Below the pieces are notes generated by a model. The model saw only the letters and a program-made list of their open reading frames with translations, made no database searches and was not told the origin of the DNA. Of a stretch of DNA of 40,446 nt, positions 2,593 through 39,162 are shown piece after piece. Origin of the DNA: Candidatus Melainabacteria bacterium (GTDB lineage: Bacteria > Cyanobacteriota > Vampirovibrionia > 2-02-FULL-35-15); contig JACOTS010000052.1 of the NCBI GenBank assembly GCA_016178265.1, forward strand, positions 1 through 40,446, given 5' to 3'. A program made the translations under genes and the position numbers. The stretch's first letter is position 1. Each line of letters begins with the position of its first letter.

Positions 2593-3778
2593 AATTATCT
2601 TTTAGAATAAACATTCCATCTTTTACTTCATAAATTGCAAATCCAGGGCCTTCTAAATCCCCTTTTGAATTAAAAGATAACTTTCCTAAAGCACCATTAA
2701 ATTCATTTATGTTTTGAATTTCCTTAGCTATCTTATCCGAACTTTTCTCTTTTACTTTTTCTATAGCAGAGATAAGTATATTAGTAGCATCATATGCTGC
2801 TGCTGAATAACTTCCAAGTTCTTTTTTGTATTTCTGCTTATATTTTTCTACAAATGACCCATCTTTTACCGGAAGTGATGAGATAACTAAGGCTCCCTGT
2901 GCTGCTTCACTGGCACAATCTATGAACTCTTGATCAAACACTCCTTCGCTTCCAACAAAAGCCGTTGTAAGTCCTGACTCTCTAAGTTCTTTTAGAAACT
3001 TTCCAGCATCACCATATTCTCCAACAAAAAATATTACTTCCGGAGATTTTTCAGTAACTAGTTTTACCTCTGAAGAATAGTCACTTTTTCCAACTCTATA
3101 TTTTTCATACAAAATAACATCAGGTGCGGTTTCTGAATCTTTACTCAATCTTCCTAAAAATTCAGATGCAAGGCTTGAACCATAAGGTCTGTTATTGTAT
3201 AAAACTCCTATCTTTTTAAATCCTTTTTCTTGAATAAGATCAGCTAATATTTCTCCTTGTTTATCATCCCTTCCTATGGTCCTAAAAACATAGCCTTTTA
3301 CTGCATCCCTTTCAGTAAAAATTGGACTTGTTGAACCTGGTGAAATTTGAGGAATTTTTGCTTTTGCATATATTTCAGAAGCAGGAATTGAAATATCAGA
3401 GTTTAGATGTCCAATTACCCCAAGTACCATAGCATCAACCAAGTCTCTTGCTCTCCAAGTGGCATCTCCAGGAAGCCCCCCATCATCAACTTTTATAAGT
3501 TCAATCTGTTTGCCATTTATTCCACCCTTTTCATTTTTTATATCCACTGCAAGTTCTGCACCTCTAATTATTGAAAGTCCTAGGGCTTGATATGGTCCTA
3601 TTTGAGGAGCAACTACAGCAATTTTATAAATACTCTCATCTTTTTTTTCAACTTCAGCTTGAGTATTATTGGGTTTCTCTTTTACTTGAGATTTTTGATT
3701 TTTATGACATGCCGAAAGAATAGTTAAAGCAAAAACAAGTGAAAGTAAAATTAAACTTAATCTACCAGCTTTTATCAT
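2585..3778 (-). CDS. ABC-type branched-chain amino acid binding lipoprotein (LivK/PBP type 1 family)
   Basis: Lipoprotein signal (LSAC). YKIAVVAPQIGPY...GGINGKQIELIKVDDGG is typical of Leu/Ile/Val-binding proteins. Paralogue of the next gene. Confidence 0.8.
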   Translation of the reverse strand: MIKAGRLSLILLSLVFALTILSACHKNQKSQVKEKPNNTQAEVEKKDESIYKIAVVAPQIGPYQALGLSIIRGAELAVDIKNEKGGINGKQIELIKVDDGGLPGDATWRARDLVDAMVLGVIGHLNSDISIPASEIYAKAKIPQISPGSTSPIFTERDAVKGYVFRTIGRDDKQGEILADLIQEKGFKKIGVLYNNRPYGSSLASEFLGRLSKDSETAPDVILYEKYRVGKSDYSSEVKLVTEKSPEVIFFVGEYGDAGKFLKELRESGLTTAFVGSEGVFDQEFIDCASEAAQGALVISSLPVKDGSFVEKYKQKYKKELGSYSAAAYDATNILISAIEKVKEKSSDKIAKEIQNINEFNGALGKLSFNSKGDLEGPGFAIYEVKDGMFILKDNSK

Positions 3779-4935
3779 TATGTTTCACTTTTCTCCTTTT
3801 CTAATTTTAAAACTTGAAATTTCCCCTCTATAACTTTGCTTAAAACAAAACCCGGAGAAACAATATCTCCTTTTTCATCAAATGTTATAGAACCAGTAAC
3901 ACCAGGGAAGTCTTTAGTCTGAGCTACTTCTTGAGCAATTTTTTTCGAATCTTTTTCCCCAACTTTTCTAATTGCTTCTATTAATATATTGGTTGCATCG
4001 TATGAATTTGCTGAATAGCCTGTTGGAGGCTCACCAAATTCTTCTTTGTACTTTTTAATAAAGTCTTCATTAATTATTTGAGGGACTGAAATAGCAAGCG
4101 CTCCTTCAGTATTAATTCCACCAATCTTTATAAAATCCGGGTGATCAATGCCATCTCCACCAATAAATTGAGTTTTTTCTAAACCATACTTTGGAAAATC
4201 TTTAATTAAATGCCCTGCATCATCATGCTCTCCTGCAAGAAAAACAACATCTGGATTATTAGATGCTACCTGAGACAAAAGCGCACCGTAGTCAGTTTGA
4301 CCAACTTGAATCATGCTATAAAAGACTATTTGAGGACGTTCTCCGCTTGCAGGTAAAACCTTAATAGCTTTTGCAAATTCCCCCGCTAATGTTCTACCGT
4401 AGGCTCTGTCATTGTATAAAATCGCTACTCTCTTAAAATTATTGTTTATCACATAACTAGCAGCAATCTTGCCTTGTGTATCATCTCTTCCTATTGTTCT
4501 AAAAACATAACCTTTAGCTGCTTCTCTTTCGGTAAAATACGGGCTTGTTGTCCCCGGACTAATCTGAGGTATATTTGCTCTGGTATAAAACTCAGAAGCA
4601 GGAATTGAAATATCAGAGTTTAAGTGCCCAATTACACCAAGTACCATATCTGTTCTGGTTAACCTATATGCAAAGAAAGCTCCTTCTCCAACAAGACCAC
4701 CATCATCTTCTTTAATTAAAACAATCTCTTTACCATTAACACCATTTGTTTCATTAGCTTCTTTCACAGCAAGCTCGGCACCATTTACAATTGATTTTCC
4801 TAAAATAGAATAGGGCCCACTAAGAGGAGAAATAACAGCAATTTTATAAATATCTTTTGGATATTTTGGCTGCAGGCAACCTGAAGTAGAAAACATCAAC
4901 AAAATAATCAGTAAAAAATTTAAGGTCTTACTCAT
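3778..4935 (-). CDS. ABC-type branched-chain amino acid binding lipoprotein, tandem paralogue
   Basis: Same family and the same conserved blocks (VIGHLNSDISIPASE, GYVFRTIGRDD). The MSKTLNF start at 4935 is preferred over the track start at 4953. Its stop overlaps the downstream start by 1 nt (TAATG). Confidence 0.8.
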   Translation of the reverse strand: MSKTLNFLLIILLMFSTSGCLQPKYPKDIYKIAVISPLSGPYSILGKSIVNGAELAVKEANETNGVNGKEIVLIKEDDGGLVGEGAFFAYRLTRTDMVLGVIGHLNSDISIPASEFYTRANIPQISPGTTSPYFTEREAAKGYVFRTIGRDDTQGKIAASYVINNNFKRVAILYNDRAYGRTLAGEFAKAIKVLPASGERPQIVFYSMIQVGQTDYGALLSQVASNNPDVVFLAGEHDDAGHLIKDFPKYGLEKTQFIGGDGIDHPDFIKIGGINTEGALAISVPQIINEDFIKKYKEEFGEPPTGYSANSYDATNILIEAIRKVGEKDSKKIAQEVAQTKDFPGVTGSITFDEKGDIVSPGFVLSKVIEGKFQVLKLEKEKSET

Positions 4936-5863: not shown

Positions 5864-5894
5864 CCAATCCTCAATCCCATTATAATAGAAATCA

Positions 5895-7649
5895 ATGCTA
5901 ACTCAACTTACCATTTCAAACTTTGCGATAATTGATGAACTAGAAATTAATTTTAATAGTGGTTTGATCGTACTAACAGGTGAAACAGGTGCAGGAAAAT
6001 CAATAATTATAGATGCATTGGATTTTTTATTGGGGGCAAGGGGAAGCTTAGATTTTATAAAAAATGGTACAAGCAAAGCAAAGGTAGAAGGGATTTTTGA
6101 AATTAGTGACAAACTTTCAAGAATCTTACATAATTGGTTTAAAGAAAATGGTTTTGATGAGCTCGATAGTCAAAATCAATTAATAATCTCAAGAGAATTA
6201 TCACAAAATGGCTCTAAAGCAAAAATTAATGGTTCAATTGCTAATCTTTCACATCTTACCTATGTCAGGGAATATATTTTTGATATTCACGAACAAAGCA
6301 GTCATATTGATTTGCTAAAGATTGAAAAGCAAATTGAAATATTTGATTCTTTCGGAGATATTAGCCATCAAAAGCTTTTAAGTAGTTACAGAAATTTATT
6401 TGAAGAATTTACAATCATAAAAAATAGGCTAAACAGTCTTACAGAAAGCTCAGAAGAAATTGCAAAAAAAATGGATTTCTTAAAATTTCAAATAAATGAA
6501 ATAGAAGAAGCAAATATAAGTGATTTAAAAGAAGAAGAAACCTTGCTTGAACAAAGGAAAAAGCTATTAAACAGCAAAGAACTGTATGACAATGCTTCAA
6601 AAATAAATGAGTTAATAAGTGGCGAAAATCCTTATAACCTAACAAAGCTACTTACAGAAATCAAAAAACTAATTGCAAGCTCAAGCTCTTTTGACATATT
6701 GTTTGAGCCTTATAAAGAAGTTATTGAATCTGCTAGTGATAGCATGAAAGATTTATCCTCATTTACATCAAGTTACACAGAAACCATTCAAGAGCCTGGT
6801 GAAAACTTAGATGAAATAGAAGATAGGCTTGATACTTTTTACAGACTAAAGAAAAAATACGGAAATACTCTTAAAGATATAAAAGGATCTTTAGAAAAAA
6901 TGGAAGATGAACTAACAACATATACAGATCCAAGAAAATCTAAAGAAAGTTTAGAAAAGGAATATAAACAAAGAGAAGAAGAGATTAATCTGCTTGCAGA
7001 CAAATTAACCAGATCAAGAGAAAAGCTAGCACAAGAATTTGTAAATAAAGTTAATGAGGAGCTTTTAACTTTAGGATTTAAAAGTAAAAACAGCTCAAGT
7101 AATTTTCCTTTATTTGTAGTTGAGTTCTTAGATTGTCCTTTAAGCAAATGTGGCAAGGAACAAATTCAATTTTTGTTTACAGCAAATCCTGATGAAGAGC
7201 CAAAACCCTTGTTAAAAGTAGCATCTGGTGGTGAGCTTTCCCGAATAATGCTTGCAATTAAGTCACTTGTAGGTTCTTTTGGATTTATAAATACAAAAAC
7301 CATGGTTTTAGATGAAATAGATATTGGGATAAGTGGAGAAATTGCATCTTCTGTAGCAAAAAAATTGTATAAGATTTCAAGAAGCAATCAAGTTATTTGC
7401 ATAACACATCAACCCATTGTTGCAGCAATGGCTGATGAACATTTTGAGGTAATAAAAGAGATAGAAGATGGTACTACTTTTGTCAATATAAGGCAACTAG
7501 CAAATGATGAAAGATGGAATGCCTTAGTTTCACTACTTGCACCAGAGTTAAAATCAAAAGAAATTTCTCATGATGCAAAACAATATGCAAAATCTCTGTT
7601 AGATAATGCAAATAAAATAAAAAACAAAAAAGAAGATGCATTAATATGA
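5895..7649 (+). CDS. recN: DNA repair protein RecN
   Basis: N-terminal Walker A (GETGAGKS), long coiled-coil middle, C-terminal SGGELSRIMLAIK signature and Walker B (LDEID). Confidence 0.9.
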   Translation: MLTQLTISNFAIIDELEINFNSGLIVLTGETGAGKSIIIDALDFLLGARGSLDFIKNGTSKAKVEGIFEISDKLSRILHNWFKENGFDELDSQNQLIISRELSQNGSKAKINGSIANLSHLTYVREYIFDIHEQSSHIDLLKIEKQIEIFDSFGDISHQKLLSSYRNLFEEFTIIKNRLNSLTESSEEIAKKMDFLKFQINEIEEANISDLKEEETLLEQRKKLLNSKELYDNASKINELISGENPYNLTKLLTEIKKLIASSSSFDILFEPYKEVIESASDSMKDLSSFTSSYTETIQEPGENLDEIEDRLDTFYRLKKKYGNTLKDIKGSLEKMEDELTTYTDPRKSKESLEKEYKQREEEINLLADKLTRSREKLAQEFVNKVNEELLTLGFKSKNSSSNFPLFVVEFLDCPLSKCGKEQIQFLFTANPDEEPKPLLKVASGGELSRIMLAIKSLVGSFGFINTKTMVLDEIDIGISGEIASSVAKKLYKISRSNQVICITHQPIVAAMADEHFEVIKEIEDGTTFVNIRQLANDERWNALVSLLAPELKSKEISHDAKQYAKSLLDNANKIKNKKEDALI

Positions 7650-9430: not shown

Positions 9431-9651
9431 GCAAAACAATTTGTAGGATTTGTCCAATTTACTTGGCAAATCCGGTAAGGCGAAAATAAGGAAGGAACGA
9501 GCCGAGTGTTCGCACGAGACGAGCAAAATAAAGTGAGGAAAGACAAGGATAAAATCGGAGAAGAAAAAATAAGCTTTTTGTGTGATTCATTCACCAAAAA
9601 GCGTCGAGAAAGGGGAGCGAGCTGAGCATTCGTGCGAAGCGAGCGGTAAAA
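9431..9651 (+). repeat. structured repeat cassette, two tandem type-1 units
   Basis: Unit 1: hairpin H 9446-9473, GA hairpin S 9495-9526. Unit 2: H 9573-9602, S 9615-9646, then TAAAA and the rpmJ ATG. The reverse complement closely matches 14250-14398 and 12468-12550. Confidence 0.9.
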
Positions 9652-12467: not shown

Positions 12468-12595
12468 TTTTTAATACCGCTCGTTTCGCGCTAACGCTCA
12501 ACTCGCTTTTTTCCTCCAGCGCTTTTTGGTGAATGAATCACACAAAAAGCTTATCTCTCCTTTTTCCCTAGTTTCTATCTCTTACCTCTTATCTC
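12468..12595 (-). repeat. structured repeat cassette, type 1, fills the pntAB-pntB spacer
   Basis: In RNA (minus) orientation: heptads 12573-12600, H 12521-12550, GGAGG (revcomp of 12513-12517), S 12477-12506, UAUUAAAAA, then the pntB AUG (12467). Confidence 0.9.
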
Positions 12596-12880
12596 TTATT
12601 TCTTCTTAAACATCTTAAGCATACGATCAGTTACTGTATATCCACCAACTACATTTATTGTTGCAAAAACTATTGCTACACACCCAAGAACAGTAGCTAA
12701 GTTTGTTTCCCCATATCCTGCAGATAGAAGTGCACCAACAACCGAGATGCCAGAAATTGCATTGGAACCTGACATAAGAGGAGTATGCAATGTAGGTGGA
12801 ACCTTGGTAATAACTTCAAACCCAACAAAAATTGCAAGTACAAGAATATAAAGTGTAATTAAAAATTCTCCAAATATCAT
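12596..12880 (-). CDS. pntAB: NAD(P) transhydrogenase subunit alpha part 2 (membrane part)
   Basis: 94-aa hydrophobic protein with HTPLMSGSNAISGI, the typical split alpha2 subunit, between pntAA and pntB. Confidence 0.9.
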   Translation of the reverse strand: MIFGEFLITLYILVLAIFVGFEVITKVPPTLHTPLMSGSNAISGISVVGALLSAGYGETNLATVLGCVAIVFATINVVGGYTVTDRMLKMFKKK

Positions 12881-13091
12881 TTTAATATCGCTCGTTTCGC
12901 ACGAATGCTCAACTCGCTTTTCCTTCCCGGCGACTTTTGCCGAGTAAATCGGACAAAAGTCTTAGGTTTTTTCTGATTCCTATTTCCTAATTCCTATCTC
13001 CTTATTTTATACCGCTCGCCTCTTCGCTTTTACCTTTTTCTTTTCCCATTTTCCCTGATTCCTATCTCCTAGCTCCTATTTCCTATCTTTT
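12881..13091 (-). repeat. structured repeat cassette, type 1 plus a partial second unit, fills the pntAA-pntAB spacer
   Basis: S 12888-12917, H 12932-12961, heptads (TCCTAnn)x4 at 12978-13005, a partial ACCGCTCGCC unit at 13011-13030, and heptads x4 at 13060-13087. The pntAB AUG (12880) follows GAGCGAUAUUAAA. Confidence 0.9.
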
Positions 13092-14249: not shown

Positions 14250-14420
14250 CTTTTACCGCTCGCTTCGCACGAATGCTCAGCTCGCTCCTTATTTTCGACG
14301 CTTTTTGGTGAGTGAATCACACAAAAAGCTTATTTCCTACTTTTCTACTTTATCGGATTTGCTGGATAAACCAGACAAATCCTACAAATTGTTTTATGCT
14401 CTGATCTTCTTCTGATTCCT
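14250..14420 (-). repeat. structured repeat cassette (type 1) forming the pntAA 5' leader
   Basis: S 14256-14285 (same core as 9617-9646), H 14300-14329, a second H 14355-14382, the shared TACAAATTGTTTT edge, and a pyrimidine tail up to 14420. GAGCGGUAAAAG precedes the pntAA AUG. Confidence 0.9.
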
Positions 14421-14424
14421 CTTC

Positions 14425-14452
14425 ATTATAAATTTAATCATAAACATTGTAA
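14425..14452 (-). promoter_or_regulatory. sigma70-like promoter candidate for the pnt operon
   Basis: On the minus strand: TTACAA (14452-14447), 16-nt spacer, TATAAT (14430-14425). The cassette at 14250-14420 would then be transcribed as leader. Confidence 0.4.
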
Positions 14453-14483
14453 AAGTATTGTTATTTTGAAAATTAACTTATAG

Positions 14484-14622
14484 GATAACTGCTCACCTAA
14501 TAGAAGCAATCTTGTGGGTGACACCGGAAGGGAGGGGGTCCATGAGCAAGGTACGTAGCTCATGGAGGGTGACCTGTAGGTGGCAGGACCCACTAAGTTA
14601 TAGCTAGCAAGGTGAGCAGTTA
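14484..14622. other. 139-nt long imperfect hairpin (candidate structured RNA or MITE-like element), class unknown
   Basis: A perfect 13-bp closing stem ATAACTGCTCACC/GGTGAGCAGTTAT. Inner stems CTTGTGGG/CCCAC(T)AAG and CCATGAGC/GCTCATGG. GC-rich core. A partial third copy of the arm (GGTAACTACTCACC) sits at 14756-14769. Confidence 0.35.
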
Positions 14623-14635
14623 TAAAAGGAACTTT

Positions 14636-14659
14636 TGTACATTCGTACAAGTCTATAAA
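14636..14659 (+). promoter_or_regulatory. palindrome TGTAC-ATTC-GTACA (LexA-box-like) next to a TATAAA -10 candidate
   Basis: Perfect inverted half-sites at 14636-14649, 4 nt upstream of TATAAA (14654-14659) and about 270 nt upstream of lexA. It resembles the GTAC-N4-GTWC LexA box type reported for cyanobacteria (from memory). Confidence 0.3.
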
Positions 14660-14806
14660 ACTGGTCAAGCAAGTGGTAGCTAGCAGCTTACCCAATAATC
14701 TTGCATTTTTACTCCTCAAATACTTAAAACGCTAGCTACCGACCATTAAATTATGGGTAACTACTCACCATCTATAAAATGACCACTATAGCAATTTATC
14801 AGGAAA

Positions 14807-14921
14807 GGTTTTGTCCGACTTGTTCGGCAAAACCTGGACATCGTGGTAAGAAGCAAATATCTAGTGCACTCTGGAAAGGTGGCGAGCAAGTTATGAGCGA
14901 GCCACCTGAGTAAAAACAATT
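14807..14921 (+). repeat. structured repeat cassette, type 2 (long variant), lexA leader
   Basis: H 14807-14834 (GGUUUUG-U-CCGA-CUUGU-UCGG-CAAAACC), a middle block shared with 20338-20379, and S-like 14878-14906 (GGTGGCGAGCAAGTTATGAGCGAGCCACC). TGAGTAAAAACAATT then leads to the lexA ATG. Confidence 0.8.
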
Positions 14922-15503
14922 ATGGCAACAGAACTTACAGAAAACCAAACCGGATTTTTAAACGGGCTTAAAAAGCAATACAGAAAAACCCCGCTTCCAT
15001 CCATAAGACAAATAGCAGAAGATCTTGGTTTTAAATATCACAATTCTGTTCAACACTATCTTGAAATATTAATGTTTCAAGGCATTATTAAAAAAATCGA
15101 TGATTTTTTATATCTAGATAAAAATTTGTTTGGTTTAAAGATCTTTGATTCCAGGGTACCTGCAGGGCTTCCTGCTCAAAGCGATGATAGCTATGAAGTT
15201 TTTGATTTTGATGAATTCATGAACATTGATAATGAGAGAGGATTTATGCTTAGGGTCTCCGGAGATTCTATGATAGACGCTGGAATACATGATGGTGATT
15301 TAATTACAGTAGATACAAAAATCAGGCCCACACATGGGCTTATAGTTGTTGCAATAGTAGATGGTGGTTATACAGTTAAGTACTTACGCAAAAAAGGAAA
15401 TAAATATTATTTAAAAGCAGCTAACCCAAAATATAATGATATTCACCCAGAGCATGAGTTTAAGGTGGTTGGTGTGGTAACCGGTTCTATCCGTAAATTT
15501 TAG
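14922..15503 (+). CDS. lexA: LexA repressor
   Basis: N-terminal winged HTH, an Ala-Gly cleavage site (VPAGLPA), and the S24 peptidase Ser (SGDSM) and Lys (TVKYL). Confidence 0.9.
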   Translation: MATELTENQTGFLNGLKKQYRKTPLPSIRQIAEDLGFKYHNSVQHYLEILMFQGIIKKIDDFLYLDKNLFGLKIFDSRVPAGLPAQSDDSYEVFDFDEFMNIDNERGFMLRVSGDSMIDAGIHDGDLITVDTKIRPTHGLIVVAIVDGGYTVKYLRKKGNKYYLKAANPKYNDIHPEHEFKVVGVVTGSIRKF

Positions 15504-20242: not shown

Positions 20243-20305
20243 TATCCCTTTGTTTTTGTTACTGCCTACCTAACACTAGAAGTTCCAACTAAACTACTAC
20301 AAGGT

Positions 20306-20420
20306 AAGATTTTATCCGATTTATTCGGTAAAATCTTGATAGCAATGCTAAGAAGTACATAATATGTGCACTTTGCAAAACCGGCGCAGCTCATTCGTGA
20401 GCAAGCCGGTGGTAGGCAAA
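20306..20420 (+). repeat. structured repeat cassette, type 2 (long variant)
   Basis: H 20306-20337 (AAGAUUUUA-U-CCGA-UUUAU-UCGG-UAAAAUCUU), a middle block homologous to 14835-14877, and S 20380-20410 (ACCGG..GCTCA-TTCG-TGAGC..CCGGT). Followed by GGTAGGCAAAAA. Confidence 0.8.
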
Positions 20421-20511
20421 AATATCCCTTTATTACGCCTAATTCTACATATTTAGTGATTATCTAATAAAAAGAAACTCAAGTAAATTTTTTACCGTCT
20501 TACTTTAAGTT

Positions 20512-28865: not shown

Positions 28866-28922
28866 CTACCTAAAAGGGGCTTATTAATAGACCACGCTAT
28901 AATAAATCTTGCTAGTCTTATC

Positions 28923-28953
28923 CTCTGATCTCTGATTCTCTGATTCTCTGAAA
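28923..28953 (+). repeat. tandem 7-8-nt repeats (CTCTGAT(T))x4 abutting the tRNA 5' end
   Basis: CTCTGAT CTCTGATT CTCTGATT CTCTGAAA, ending 1 nt before the tRNA-Arg. The same CTGATTC word occurs in the cassette tails at 12973-12979, 13055-13061 and 14413-14419. Confidence 0.8.
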
Positions 28954-28954
28954 C

Positions 28955-29029
28955 GGGCCCTTACCTCAGCCTGGATAGAGGACATGGCTACGAACCATGG
29001 CGTCAGGAGTTCAAATCTCCTAGGGCCCT
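28955..29029 (+). tRNA. tRNA-Arg (anticodon ACG)
   Basis: Manual cloverleaf: acceptor GGGCCCT/AGGGCCC, D stem CCTC/GAGG, anticodon stem CATGG/CCATG with loop CTACGAA, T arm AGGAG-TTCAAAT-CTCCT. No encoded CCA. Confidence 0.9.
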
Positions 29030-29030
29030 A

Positions 29031-29159
29031 ACTTAAATAGCCCAGCAAGCAAAGGATTTTCTGTTAAGTGAAAATCCGGAGCGTCGAAAATTAATATAGA
29101 CCATACCAGATAATGCAAAGTTGGTTTTAGTCTCTGCTAAAACCAGCGGTTATAAAAGC
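29031..29159 (+). repeat. 129-bp insert built of cassette-like modules between the tRNA and its duplicated 3' half
   Basis: Hairpin 29054-29077 followed by GGAGCGTCGAAAA (compare the cassette linker GCGTCGAGAAA). Hairpin 29122-29145 followed by GCGGTTATAAAAG (compare the cassette 3' end GAGCGGTAAAAG). Confidence 0.6.
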
Positions 29160-29208
29160 ACATGGCTACGAACCATGGCGTCAGGAGTTCAAATCTCCTA
29201 GGGCCCTA
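29160..29208 (+). repeat. exact 49-nt duplicate of the tRNA-Arg(ACG) 3' half (matches 28982-29030)
   Basis: Base-by-base identity from the anticodon stem through the acceptor end plus 2 nt. It ends 1 nt before the stop codon of the convergent gene. Confidence 0.9.
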
Positions 29209-32128: not shown

Positions 32129-32740
32129 TTATTGTATTGGGCTATCATTAGGAGTAGCAATAAAAGGAAAGCCATAAGACTGAACTATTCCTGCAGAATC
32201 TTTGTAAATAGTTGAACAGCCCCCTTGAAATATAGAATTTGTATCAATTCCGCCAATACAGTTAAAGGAGTATAGCTGCTTGTCAATTTCATAAGGCAGG
32301 TTAAAGTTCACCACATCATAAATTAAAAAACCAACATTGTTTTTTGCCACAATTTGAAAGTTCTTGTATCTTACCTCATAAGAAAATGCCCCTGTATAAT
32401 CATCATTTTTTGAGATATTAAGTTTGAATATTACATCCTGACTGCCCTCAACCGTTCCTACAAAGGTATATCTTTGTTTCAACAAAGGATTAAATGAGTC
32501 AGTTCTAATACATGCAAGTGATGCAGTGGGACAATTAACCTCAGGACAGCTTGGGCAAACAGAATCAATCTCTAGCTTTTCCAATGCCCTTTCTTCACAT
32601 GTAGTACATAGATTCTTAAGAGTTCTTATTGAGCAAGCTGCAAGTGCATTATCAGAAGTAGTAAATATTTCTGCTGATATCAAGAATAAAACTAAAAGAA
32701 GTATAAATCTAAGTTTGTTATTTATGAAACTGGCAAACAT
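32129..32740 (-). CDS. secreted Cys-rich hypothetical protein (203 aa)
   Basis: Signal peptide, an N-terminal Cys cluster (CSIRTLKNLCTTCEE...CPSCPEVNCP...C), then a beta-rich domain. No family recognised. Confidence 0.5.
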   Translation of the reverse strand: MFASFINNKLRFILLLVLFLISAEIFTTSDNALAACSIRTLKNLCTTCEERALEKLEIDSVCPSCPEVNCPTASLACIRTDSFNPLLKQRYTFVGTVEGSQDVIFKLNISKNDDYTGAFSYEVRYKNFQIVAKNNVGFLIYDVVNFNLPYEIDKQLYSFNCIGGIDTNSIFQGGCSTIYKDSAGIVQSYGFPFIATPNDSPIQ

Positions 32741-32889
32741 AAGAAAAAATTATAAAACTTGGTATTCAAAGAAGAGAATCAATTAATAAATTCTTTAAAT
32801 TTGAATTGATATGATACTTACTCAATTAAGAACTCATAAACTAGTAAGCCATAATTAAATTTAGCTGGATTTATCCTTAAAACTAGCAC

Positions 32890-37501: not shown

Positions 37502-39112
37502 TTACATTCTAAATACACCGTGCTCTTTAGCTTTTATAGATGAATTGAAAGCAGCAGAAATACAATTTGCAAGAATTTTTCTTGTATCAATTGGATCTAT
37601 TATCCCATCATCCCAAATCCTTGCAGTACTATAGTAGCAACTGCTTTCTTCTGTATACTTCTCAAGAATAGGTTTTTTAAATTCTTCTTCTTCCTCCTGT
37701 GACATAGACGGTTCACCCTTTGCTACAAGTCCATCTTTCTTAACCGTCAAAAGCACACTTGCTGCCTGTTCACCACCCATAACTGAGATTCTTGCATTTG
37801 GCCACATGAATAAAAACCTAGGAGAGTATGCTCTGCCACACATCCCATAATTTCCCGCACCATAAGAACCACCTATAATAACTGTAAACTTCGGCACATT
37901 TGCATTTGCAACAGCCTGCACCATCTTTGCTCCATTTTTGGTTATTCCTCCGGCTTCAAAATGGCTACCAACCATAAATCCAGCTATGTTTTGCAAAAAT
38001 AAAAGCGGGATATTTCTTTGGCTGCAAAGCTCTACAAAATGTGTTGCTTTAAGCGCGCTTTCAGCAAATAAAATTCCATTGTTAGCTAATATTCCAACCG
38101 GATAACCATAAATTCTTCCAAAGCCACAAACAATAGACTTTCCATAAAGAGCTTTAAATTCATGAAACTCACTACCGTCAACAATTCTAGCTATAACCTC
38201 TTTGACATTATAAAGTCTTCTTGGATCTTTATTAATTATTCCATACATTTCAAGCGGATTATATAGAGGTTCTTTAGATTCTCTAATATCTGGTTCTGTT
38301 TTTTTCTTTAAATTTAAATTCTCAATTATGTTTCTGGTTATTCTTATCGCATGATCATCACTATCTGCGCAGTGATCTGTTACCCCTGATTTTCTACAGT
38401 GAACATCTGCACCACCTAAATCCTCTGCACTAACTTCTTCCCCTGTTGCTGCTTTAACAAGAGGAGGACCTCCTAAAAAAATAGTACCTTGTTTTTTTAC
38501 AATGACTGACTCATCGCTCATTGCAGGCACATATGCACCACCTGCAGTACATGAACCCATAACAACTGCTATTTGAGGAATATTTGCTGCTGACATTCTT
38601 GCTTGGTAATAAAAAATTCTTCCGAAGTGTTCTTTATCAGGAAAAACATCTGCCTGTAGAGGCAAAAATGCACCACCAGAATCTACCAGGTAAACACAAG
38701 GCAAATTATTTTCCATTGCTATTTCTTGAGCACGAAGATGCTTTTTTACAGTTATAGGATAATAAGTTCCGCCTTTAACAGTTGCATCATTTGCTACTAT
38801 AACCACTTCTCTGCCATGTACCTTTCCAATGCCTGTCACTATACCTGCACAAGGTGCATCATTGTTGTATAAATTAAAAGCAGCTAGGGATGAAAGTTCT
38901 AAAAAACCAGATCCCTTATCAACAAGAGTCTCAATCCTTTCTCTTGCAAGCATTTTTCCTCTTTGCTTGTGCTTTTCAATGGCTTTTTGTCCACCACCTT
39001 GTTTAATCATTCCAACTTTAGATTTAAGTTCAAATACAAGTTCCTCCATATAAGCCCTGTTTTCCTGAAAAGCAGGGTCCTTTGAATTAACATTTGTTTT
39101 TAAAACATCCAT
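37502..39112 (-). CDS. liuB: methylcrotonyl-CoA carboxylase, carboxyltransferase (beta) subunit
   Basis: 536-aa carboxyltransferase with two crotonase-like halves. The sequence is of MCCC2 type ([22 protein letters not shown]..., [13 protein letters not shown]...). Confidence 0.9.
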
Positions 39113-39162
39113 TCTTTCTACCTACCGCCTGCTCGCTCATAATTCACTGTTACGATCACGCT
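39113..39162 (-). repeat. cassette S-module variant (type 2) forming the MCCase beta leader
   Basis: Minus-strand RNA: ...GAAUUAUGAGCGAGCAGGCGGUAGGUAGAAAGA-AUG. The 12-mer TTATGAGCGAGC is identical to 14891-14902 in the lexA leader copy. Confidence 0.65.

Follow-up and report, generated by a model that had tools for sequence, protein, structure and literature searches.

Hairpin S, the structure analysed in this study, is the 3' module of a multi-copy and partly mobile intergenic repeat which was found only in some groundwater Melainabacteria, and its stem is real, being kept folded by selection as a single-strand structure. S is not a stand-alone motif, since it always follows a second hairpin, B. 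We see about an even chance that S forms the end of a mobile repeat as a strand-specific hairpin, and that its compact folding between AUG and an SD-like AAGGAG sequence permits residence of the repeat in translation initiation regions. The window, i.e. the whole stretch of 40,446 nucleotides that was analysed, has about 34% GC, represents a compact bacterial genome, and is 99.7% identical to a contig of the MAG GCA_016196635.1.

A search of the window with a degenerate pattern returned exactly the five copies of S that had been proposed, with cores at 9501-9520 and 9621-9640 on the plus strand, and at 12483-12502, 12894-12913 and 14262-14281 on the minus strand. The chance expectation for this pattern is 0 (no match in 100 shuffles, versus five in the real sequence), and the copy sequences, together with their Watson-Crick covariation within the window, were correct on re-reading. 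Every one of these copies lies on the sense strand of its downstream gene, in a leader or an intercistronic spacer. All four intact 32-mers were folded by ViennaRNA in the same manner, ..((..(((..(((....)))..)))..)).., that is, as a 28-nt helix GC-GA-GCU-GA-GCA-UUNG-UGC-GA-AGC-GA-GC with two tandem G·A/A·G loops, which in the rpmJ copy spans 9617-9644 and is larger than the 8-bp stem first described. Thus, the GAGCGA...GAGCGG sequences on both sides of that stem are indeed present, but they are not merely direct repeats, as they form the outer G-C/C-G helix and the second tandem G·A/A·G. The copy at 9501-9520 exists as well, but it does not have the intact fold ascribed to it: there is a C·A mismatch at position 2 of the stem as originally numbered, the outer helix is broken, and the score is 56 bits versus about 100 for the other copies. 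The copies of S and B, and the related pieces of the window, are as follows:

9615-9646, plus strand: intact S, helix 9617-9644, 7 nt before the rpmJ ATG (9652), GGGGAG at its 5' foot
9495-9526, plus strand: degenerate S with the C·A mismatch and broken outer helix, part of the degenerate unit 9437-9528
14256-14287, minus strand: intact S, 8 nt before the pntAA ATG (14249), AAGGAG at its 5' foot
12888-12919, minus strand: intact S, 9 nt before the pntAB ATG (12880), AAGGAA at its 5' foot
12477-12508, minus strand: intact S with GCG/CGC apex and UUAG loop, 11 nt before the pntB ATG (12467), GGAGGAA upstream
9573-9602, plus strand: B (8-bp stem, bulged U, 4-bp stem) of the unit 9565-9648 (rpmJ)
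9446-9473, plus strand: B-type 'hairpin A' (GGAUUUG-U-CCAA...UUGG-CAAAUCC), partner of the degenerate S
14300-14329, minus strand: B of the unit 14254-14337 (pntAA)
14355-14382, minus strand: B-type hairpin A in the predicted pntAA leader
12932-12961, minus strand: B variant (GACUUUUG-U-CCGA...UCGG-CAAAAGUC) of the unit 12886-12969 (pntAB)
12521-12550, minus strand: B of the unit 12475-12558 (pntB)
13005-13029, minus strand: remnant of S without the inner hairpin (AAGCGAAGAGGCGAGCGGTATAAAA), within a heptamer array, recognized by direct reading
39113-39138, minus strand: remnant of S and of the MITE right inverted end (GAGCGAGCaggCGGTAGGTAGAAAGA), directly 5' of the ATG at 39112
14798-14848, plus strand: isolated B-type hairpin 5' of lexA, in sense orientation
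20252-20421, plus strand: complete MITE-like relative of 170 nt, with the 10-bp direct repeat ATATCCCTTT on both sides

Hairpin B, GCUUUUUG-U-GUGA-UUYAY-UCAC-CAAAAAGC, invariably precedes S at a distance of 12-14 nt, and the whole unit of about 84 nt is composed of B, a purine-rich linker, S, and a GGTA(TAAA) tail. The complete relative at 20252-20421 possesses terminal inverted repeats related to the MITE ends found in two other genomes, nzgw190 and nzgw193, as well as a B-type hairpin at about 20306-20337. Its S-position hairpin at 20381-20409 (CCGGC-GCA-GCUCA-UUCG-UGAGC-AA-GCCGG), which adjoins the right end, combines a UUCG loop with an internal loop rich in purines and is devoid of the tandem G·A. 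The module grammar of the B-S unit is seen again in a 127-nt insert which separates tRNA-Arg(ACG) at 28955-29029 from a 52-nt copy of the 3' half of this tRNA (29157-29208, 98% identical): in the insert a B-like hairpin (GGATTTTCTGTTAAGTGAAAATCC) is joined by a GCGTCGAAAAT linker to a second hairpin, after which comes CGGTTATAAAA. The region 28955-29208 looks like a scar of integration at the tRNA, and a (CTCTGAT)n tract is located upstream of the tRNA-Arg gene, at 28920-28950 on the plus strand. Tandem purine-rich heptamers (AGGAAAT, AGGAGCT, AGGAGAT and others) are also present between the pnt genes on their sense, minus strand, at 12560-12597 and 12965-13090, and all these arrays, the tRNA-Arg tract included, are reminiscent of the cyanobacterial short tandem heptamer repeats (STRR).

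The pairing of S is supported by covariation among its copies, a test which the original prediction had proposed. In 35 distinct sequences of S alone, 97.5% of cells pair, four of the eight Watson-Crick pairs show double compensatory changes (8-25, UA/CG; 9-24, UA/CG/GC; 13-20, CG/UA; 14-19, AU/GC), and none of 500 shuffles reached the covariation score. One-sided intermediates at these four pairs were absent from the 35 sequences. When 96 distinct B+S units were considered, 99.2% of cells paired, versus 31-46% when the 3' partners were slid, and 12 of 20 pairs showed double changes; for S, the share of paired cells is put at 97.5-99.5%. On the sense strand several G·U cells were found in B and no G·U pairs in S. 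The outer helix of S is invariant, so that covariation speaks neither for nor against it; in part, it had also been imposed by the search patterns. It was also argued that recent duplication alone would hardly explain the conservation of S. This view holds insofar as the pairing is kept in at least six species-level genomes and by all subfamilies of the repeat; on the other hand, much of the covariation lies between the subfamilies and does not represent compensation in place, as subtypes were found to be swapped at orthologous sites at a coding divergence of 5%.

The tandem G·A pairs were claimed to be invariant, and free variation at these positions in additional copies was named as an observation that would refute the motif. 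We found them to be nearly, although not absolutely, invariant. When the inner 18 nt were left unconstrained, G10 was kept in 36 of 39 copies, A11 and G22 in 37 each and A23 in all 39, and in 34 of the 39 copies all four inner bases were intact; the five exceptions are three copies with a single G-to-A change and two that are visibly decayed. The G·A bases and the flanking CGAG are thus more conserved than the positions engaged in Watson-Crick pairing. The predicted RNA folding energy of the G·A-containing strand is from -8.6 to -11 kcal/mol, compared with -5.7 to -6.8 for the complement, in which the mismatches are C·U; the respective values for DNA are -3.5 to -4.6 and -2.4 to -3.5 kcal/mol. 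Since the energy of the 32-mers is unremarkable relative to shuffles (z from -0.8 to -1.3, and likewise for DNA), it was not used as evidence for the structure, which is supported by covariation.

Occurrence of the repeat appears restricted. A scan of a genome collection with the stem positions left free returned 74 matches, which belong to 72 loci in five groundwater MAGs of Candidatus Melainabacteria and nowhere else (42 loci in nzgw190, 17 in nzgw193, 10 in SSGW_16, two in NC_groundwater_946 and one in RIFCSPLOWO2_02_FULL_35_15). A metagenome scan, in which B and the outer flanks served as anchors and the inner 18 nt of S were unconstrained, gave 42 matches, of which 39 were genuine. Altogether, about 120 copies of the B-S unit were found, exclusively in Candidatus Melainabacteria MAGs and groundwater metagenomes, and viral contigs scanned for S and B gave no matches. 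At the gathering score Rfam recognized in the window only the two tRNAs, and nothing overlapped S or B at E values up to 5; our search of the literature on Melainabacteria repeats yielded nothing relevant, the 2013 eLife paper being silent on such repeats. The repeat is small (84-124 nt), non-coding and intergenic, as at most two of 79 copies overlap a long ORF, in each case one of spurious appearance.

The repeat is a bona fide MITE in the genomes nzgw190 and nzgw193. The B-S unit resides there inside an element of 122-124 bp with 13-bp imperfect inverted ends (GTTaCTgCCTAgC versus the reverse complement GTTtCTaCCTAcC), and the 8-bp target duplications match at seven or more of the eight positions in 36 of 53 copies, versus 2% in a control with shuffled pairing. 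A full-length cognate IS would share the inverted ends GTTACTGCCTAGC. The same ends were found to bound other types of cargo (about 165 bp), among which no transposase was seen in approximately 0.8 Mb around the matches, nor was any mobilising enzyme found in these loci. Around the window's own copies of S neither inverted ends nor target duplications were detected; in one subfamily TATAA occurs on both sides of the unit, which is ambiguous as a target duplication. The MITE duplications (loci L002-L073) often contain the ATG of the downstream gene, as in AAAAAATG, AAATTATG, AGAAAATG and ATGAAAAC (e.g. L063, L047, L057 and L039), and TTAA, which may be the stop codon of the upstream gene, is common just outside them. 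Insertions thus concentrate in very short stop-to-start junctions.

Comparison of syntenic lexA-pntAA-pntAB-pntB loci showed that the repeat is an insertion relative to its relatives. In the loci L115 and L116-L118 (including GCA_001784555.1) the spacers are 46-54 nt long and contain no B or S, and an ordinary SD (AGGAG or GGAGA) is found 8-9 nt before ATG. The locus L114, whose coding DNA is 95% identical to that of the window, bears B and S before all three pnt genes, but the subtypes of B and S at the same sites are different. Such differences at 95% coding identity indicate that turnover of the repeat is much faster than point divergence. The heptamer arrays also differ between the window and L114, and the element-free L115 has a shorter heptamer stretch (GGTAAGG GATAAGG GGTAAGT).

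The 480-nt gene-free stretch between pntAA and lexA contains further palindromic sequences. One of them, TGTACGAATGTACA at 14636-14649 on the minus strand, lies between lexA (14922, plus strand) and pntAA, is kept as TGTACAAACGTACA in L115 and is likely to be a LexA operator. In addition, a perfect 14-nt inverted repeat (ATAACTGCTCACCT / AGGTGAGCAGTTAT) at 14485-14623 encloses a second palindrome at 14539-14566. It has no Rfam match, and in the region 14400-14960 no family was detected at either gathering or permissive thresholds. Elsewhere in the window, a 177-nt direct repeat of 81% identity (3255-3431 and 4472-4648) lies within two adjacent periplasmic-binding-protein genes, which are tandem paralogues.

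The S end of the unit points toward the nearest boundary of a gene or tRNA. Among non-MITE copies, this end lies within 20 nt of such a boundary in 32 of 52 cases, with a median distance of 11.5 nt, as compared with four of 48 and 159 nt for the B end. In 16 of 59 non-MITE copies the ATG of a long ORF follows 7-11 nt after the helix, rpmJ being the seventeenth case. Another 18 non-MITE copies adjoin tRNA genes: four are located upstream, the 5' end of the tRNA following 11-18 nt after S, and the other 14 are in the reverse (antisense) orientation, 8-17 nt from the 3' end of the tRNA. When the genome-scan and window copies, 79 in all and both MITE and TIR-less, were considered together, orientation relative to neighbouring genes was only weakly biased, 46 to 29. 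The genes downstream of S are unrelated to each other (they encode L36, L20, PntAA/AB/B, YidC, RsmE, GlpD, NadB and PilC), which rules out a gene-specific leader or riboswitch.

In the four window genes, rpmJ, pntAA, pntAB and pntB, S ends 7-11 nt before ATG, and no SD motif is present in any of the S-to-ATG spacers (GGTAAAA, GGTATAA, GATATTAAA and similar). An SD-like AAGGAG or GGAGGA was found at the 5' foot of S, or overlapping it, in 14 of 16 ORF-adjacent and two of 18 tRNA-adjacent copies (p = 1.4e-5), a contrast that is confounded by lineage, as the ORF-adjacent copies come mostly from the window's clade. The linear distance between AAGGAG and AUG is 34-38 nt, and folding of S is predicted to reduce it to 7-11 nt. 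The predicted pntAA leader is 201 nt long and lies downstream of a TATAAT at 14425-14430; each of its hairpins, A, B and S, folds by itself, and the centroid structure leaves the AAGGAG and AUG regions unpaired. In phage T4 genes 38 and 25, hairpins were shown previously to bring SD and AUG closer together, the spacing falling from 22 nt to 5 nt in one case and from 27 nt to 11 nt in the other (PMC3014915). The S copies of the window, with an SD-like sequence at the 5' foot, a predicted hairpin and the 7-11-nt spacing, have the features of a putative split ribosome-binding site. However, an SD motif was found in only about one third of the ordinary window genes, and since about two thirds are without it, genes linked to S may initiate without any SD. 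A separate observation is that in several window genes lacking an SD a TATAAT hexamer ends only 7-10 nt before ATG, namely in dapB at 1780 (region 1760-1782), in the gene at 5895 (region 5870-5897), and in the gene ending at 32740 (region 32740-32765, minus strand); such an arrangement suggests leaderless mRNAs.

The preferred reading, that of an end hairpin compatible with initiation regions, combines these results in the following way. A modular intergenic repeat would be mobile, now or recently, in one lineage of groundwater Melainabacteria, and S would serve as its cis-acting end module, read as a single strand by some factor. The near-invariant bases, i.e. both CGAG/GA motifs and the UUNG loop, may then be the surface recognized by the agent that spreads the element or acts on it. 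This part of the reading is based on the near-invariance of S in all contexts and orientations, its terminal position and polarity, the fast turnover, and the strand-specific irregularities of both hairpins. Compatibility with initiation regions is suggested by the sense orientation of the window copies, their 7-11-nt spacing and the SD-like foot. In mRNA, S would fold alone and loop out 28 nt, thus bringing the AAGGAG at its 5' foot to 7-11 nt from AUG, and such a split site, similar to those of T4 genes 38 and 25, might let the repeat occupy the initiation region without silencing the gene. We infer every mechanistic step, and several findings speak against the split site. S is equally conserved where the idea cannot apply, as in the 14 antisense copies near tRNA 3' ends, the MITE copies are only weakly biased in orientation, and a bridging hairpin needs no G·A pairs, so that their conservation requires some other factor. 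A more far-reaching version, which we find doubtful, would regard the B-S unit as a portable split ribosome-binding site, inserted S end first at a fixed distance of a few nucleotides from gene boundaries, such as start codons and tRNA ends, by a strand-specific targeting system that reads the G·A/CGAG bases. Such a unit would carry its own SD together with a looping-out double-G·A hairpin, and, within a single bacterial lineage, would change the way in which translation of many housekeeping genes is initiated.

One alternative explanation, possible though rather unlikely, would involve a strand-specific transposase of the HUH/Y1 type (as in REP/RAYT or at IS200/IS605 ends), for which S and B would be single-stranded DNA recognition hairpins, the G·A mismatches and bulged T marking the active strand and translation being uninvolved. 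Both hairpins do possess strand-specific irregularities, tandem G·A in S and bulged T in B, and RAYT cleavage was demonstrated to require the mismatches of REP (PMC3733652). The same explanation accommodates the location of S at the extreme end of the TIR-less unit, the TATAA flanks at both unit ends in one subfamily, the fast turnover, the lack of G·U pairs in S, and the polarity of the S end toward ORF starts and tRNA 5' and 3' ends whatever the direction of transcription. However, the sole demonstrated mobility, with inverted ends and 8-bp duplications, points to a DDE-type enzyme, and B and S, in contrast to typical IS608 ends, show no sequence relationship to each other. GTAG is found 3' and not 5' of the hairpin and is absent from the window copies, the predicted energy of the DNA hairpin is small (-3.5 to -4.6 kcal/mol), and no match to an IS200-type TnpA was obtained by tblastn of the 0.8 Mb of loci, a weak test in which an approximate IS608-like query was used. 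A dimeric site in double-stranded DNA was considered unlikely, as covariation is not expected of positions that are not contacted, and the half-sites lose their symmetry through the G·A asymmetry.

The explanations that place the role of S in RNA meet other difficulties. Recognition of the tandem sheared G·A by a cellular protein or RNA, with S as a regulatory or processing signal spread by the repeat, would agree with conservation of the G·A and flanking CGAG above that of paired positions, with the sense orientation of all window copies in leaders or operon spacers, and with the clearly higher stability of the RNA hairpin on the G·A strand. We nevertheless regard it as unlikely: the downstream genes share no theme, many copies are antisense to their neighbours or adjoin tRNAs, the related element at 20252-20421 has an S-position hairpin without tandem G·A, and there is neither a K-turn bulge nor an Rfam family. 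Moreover, such recognition is only one option for the G·A conservation, because conserved mismatches, as in REP elements, can act as recognition determinants at the DNA level (PMC3733652). A passive role of the kind known for REP, in which B and S would block 3'-exonucleases, terminate transcription weakly or be sites of processing, and thus cause differential mRNA stability in operons, could account for the presence of units between cistrons (infA-rpmJ, pntAA-pntAB-pntB) and of MITE copies just after stop codons; the stem-loops fold independently, and the reverse strand of some copies reads as a hairpin followed by UUUU. Yet this role seems quite improbable, as it leaves the 7-11-nt ATG distance and the S-end polarity unexplained, the stems are modest (about -9 to -11 kcal/mol), and on the sense strand neither S nor B is followed by a U-tract. 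The sequence after S on this strand is GGUAAAA or GGUAUAAA, and an intrinsic terminator was therefore ruled out. The tail after S is often TATAAA, and S could in principle lie within an outward-facing promoter or operator (TTGAGC as -35, a 19-nt spacer, TATAAA as -10); in the four forward tRNA contexts the tRNA 5' end, 11-18 nt after S, falls about 6-8 nt past the hexamer. This appears extremely unlikely, since the tRNA contexts are mostly in reverse orientation, the -35-like bases covary off consensus (CTGAGC, CCGAGT, TGGAGC), and in the ORF contexts ATG follows 0-4 nt after the hexamer, so that the start site would fall within the gene; the last two facts rule out a promoter as the general role of S.

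If the preferred reading is true, a structurally well-defined repeat family would be added to the non-photosynthetic sister group of Cyanobacteria, and a mobile repeat could live, by means of self-folding, in ribosome-binding regions of essential genes, such as those for L36, L20, YidC and the transhydrogenase subunits. The fold-out arrangement would also extend beyond the isolated phage T4 cases, so far the only ones known, and the strong polarity of the S end to gene and tRNA boundaries would point to a targeting mechanism. The two unusual traits of the repeat are the double tandem G·A helix and the boundary-directed placement, embedded in ribosome-binding sites, and hairpin S provides a compact natural test case for why a repeat hairpin preserves tandem G·A pairs.

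As regards known structural motifs, CGAG/CGAG and UGAG/CGAA are classic contexts in which tandem sheared G·A pairs are stable, whether in RNA or in DNA, as in r(GGCGAGCC)2 and d(ATGAGCGAAT)2. Both contexts occur in S, for which the sheared geometry is assumed from the sequence context. A K-turn was ruled out: in every copy the two G·A motifs form 2x2 internal loops that are symmetric and free of bulges, unlike K-turns, in which a 3-nt bulge separates a canonical stem from a tandem G·A stem. BOX elements of Streptococcus pneumoniae are modular repeats, and S resembles BOX and REP/BIME in forming a mosaic with other modules (heptamer arrays, B-type hairpins) and in its lineage-specific abundance. 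With these elements it also shares the character of a 20-40-nt imperfect palindrome with conserved mismatches, extragenic and present in high copy number. On the other hand, S never occurs in inverted doublets, and no RAYT gene was found in the 0.8 Mb searched with a weak, approximate query. REP elements have GTAG (or CGTC) at the 5' foot of the palindrome (PMC3733652), a tag that S lacks at this position; GTAG occurs on the 3' side of S and is confined to the MITE form (CGGTAGGTAG), the window copies ending with GGTAAAA or GATATTA, and a canonical REP was ruled out on this basis. IS200/IS605 ends (PATE) are characterized by similar subterminal hairpins at both ends, by a fixed target of 4-5 nt, and by the lack of inverted ends and duplications; the repeat has two irregular hairpins and TATAA flanks, but the sequences of B and S are unrelated.

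The arrangement predicted for S is like T4 split sites in that an SD-like sequence is located far from AUG (34-38 nt) and a hairpin between them would restore the 7-11-nt spacing. Unlike in T4 genes 38 and 25, it recurs at a dozen or more unrelated genes, to which it is delivered by the repeat, and the looped-out segment, known in the case of S from prediction, is longer, amounting to 28 nt. Among bacterial MITEs, Correia/NEMIS of Neisseria, ERIC and RUP have internal stem-loops and are co-transcribed with the genes next to them (PMC3184786), and like them the Melainabacteria repeat is a small non-coding element (about 123 bp), intergenic and present in multiple copies. It shares with bacterial MITEs the inverted ends and target duplications (in two genomes) and the frequent location adjoining gene starts or stops, where it is expected to join mRNAs. 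The differences are that its conserved structures are two internal local hairpins with fixed irregularities rather than paired inverted ends, that the B+S core also occurs without inverted ends, and that 8 bp are duplicated, whereas Correia elements duplicate TA. The repeat is a new family, or a variant, within the known class of MITE/REP-like structured intergenic repeats.
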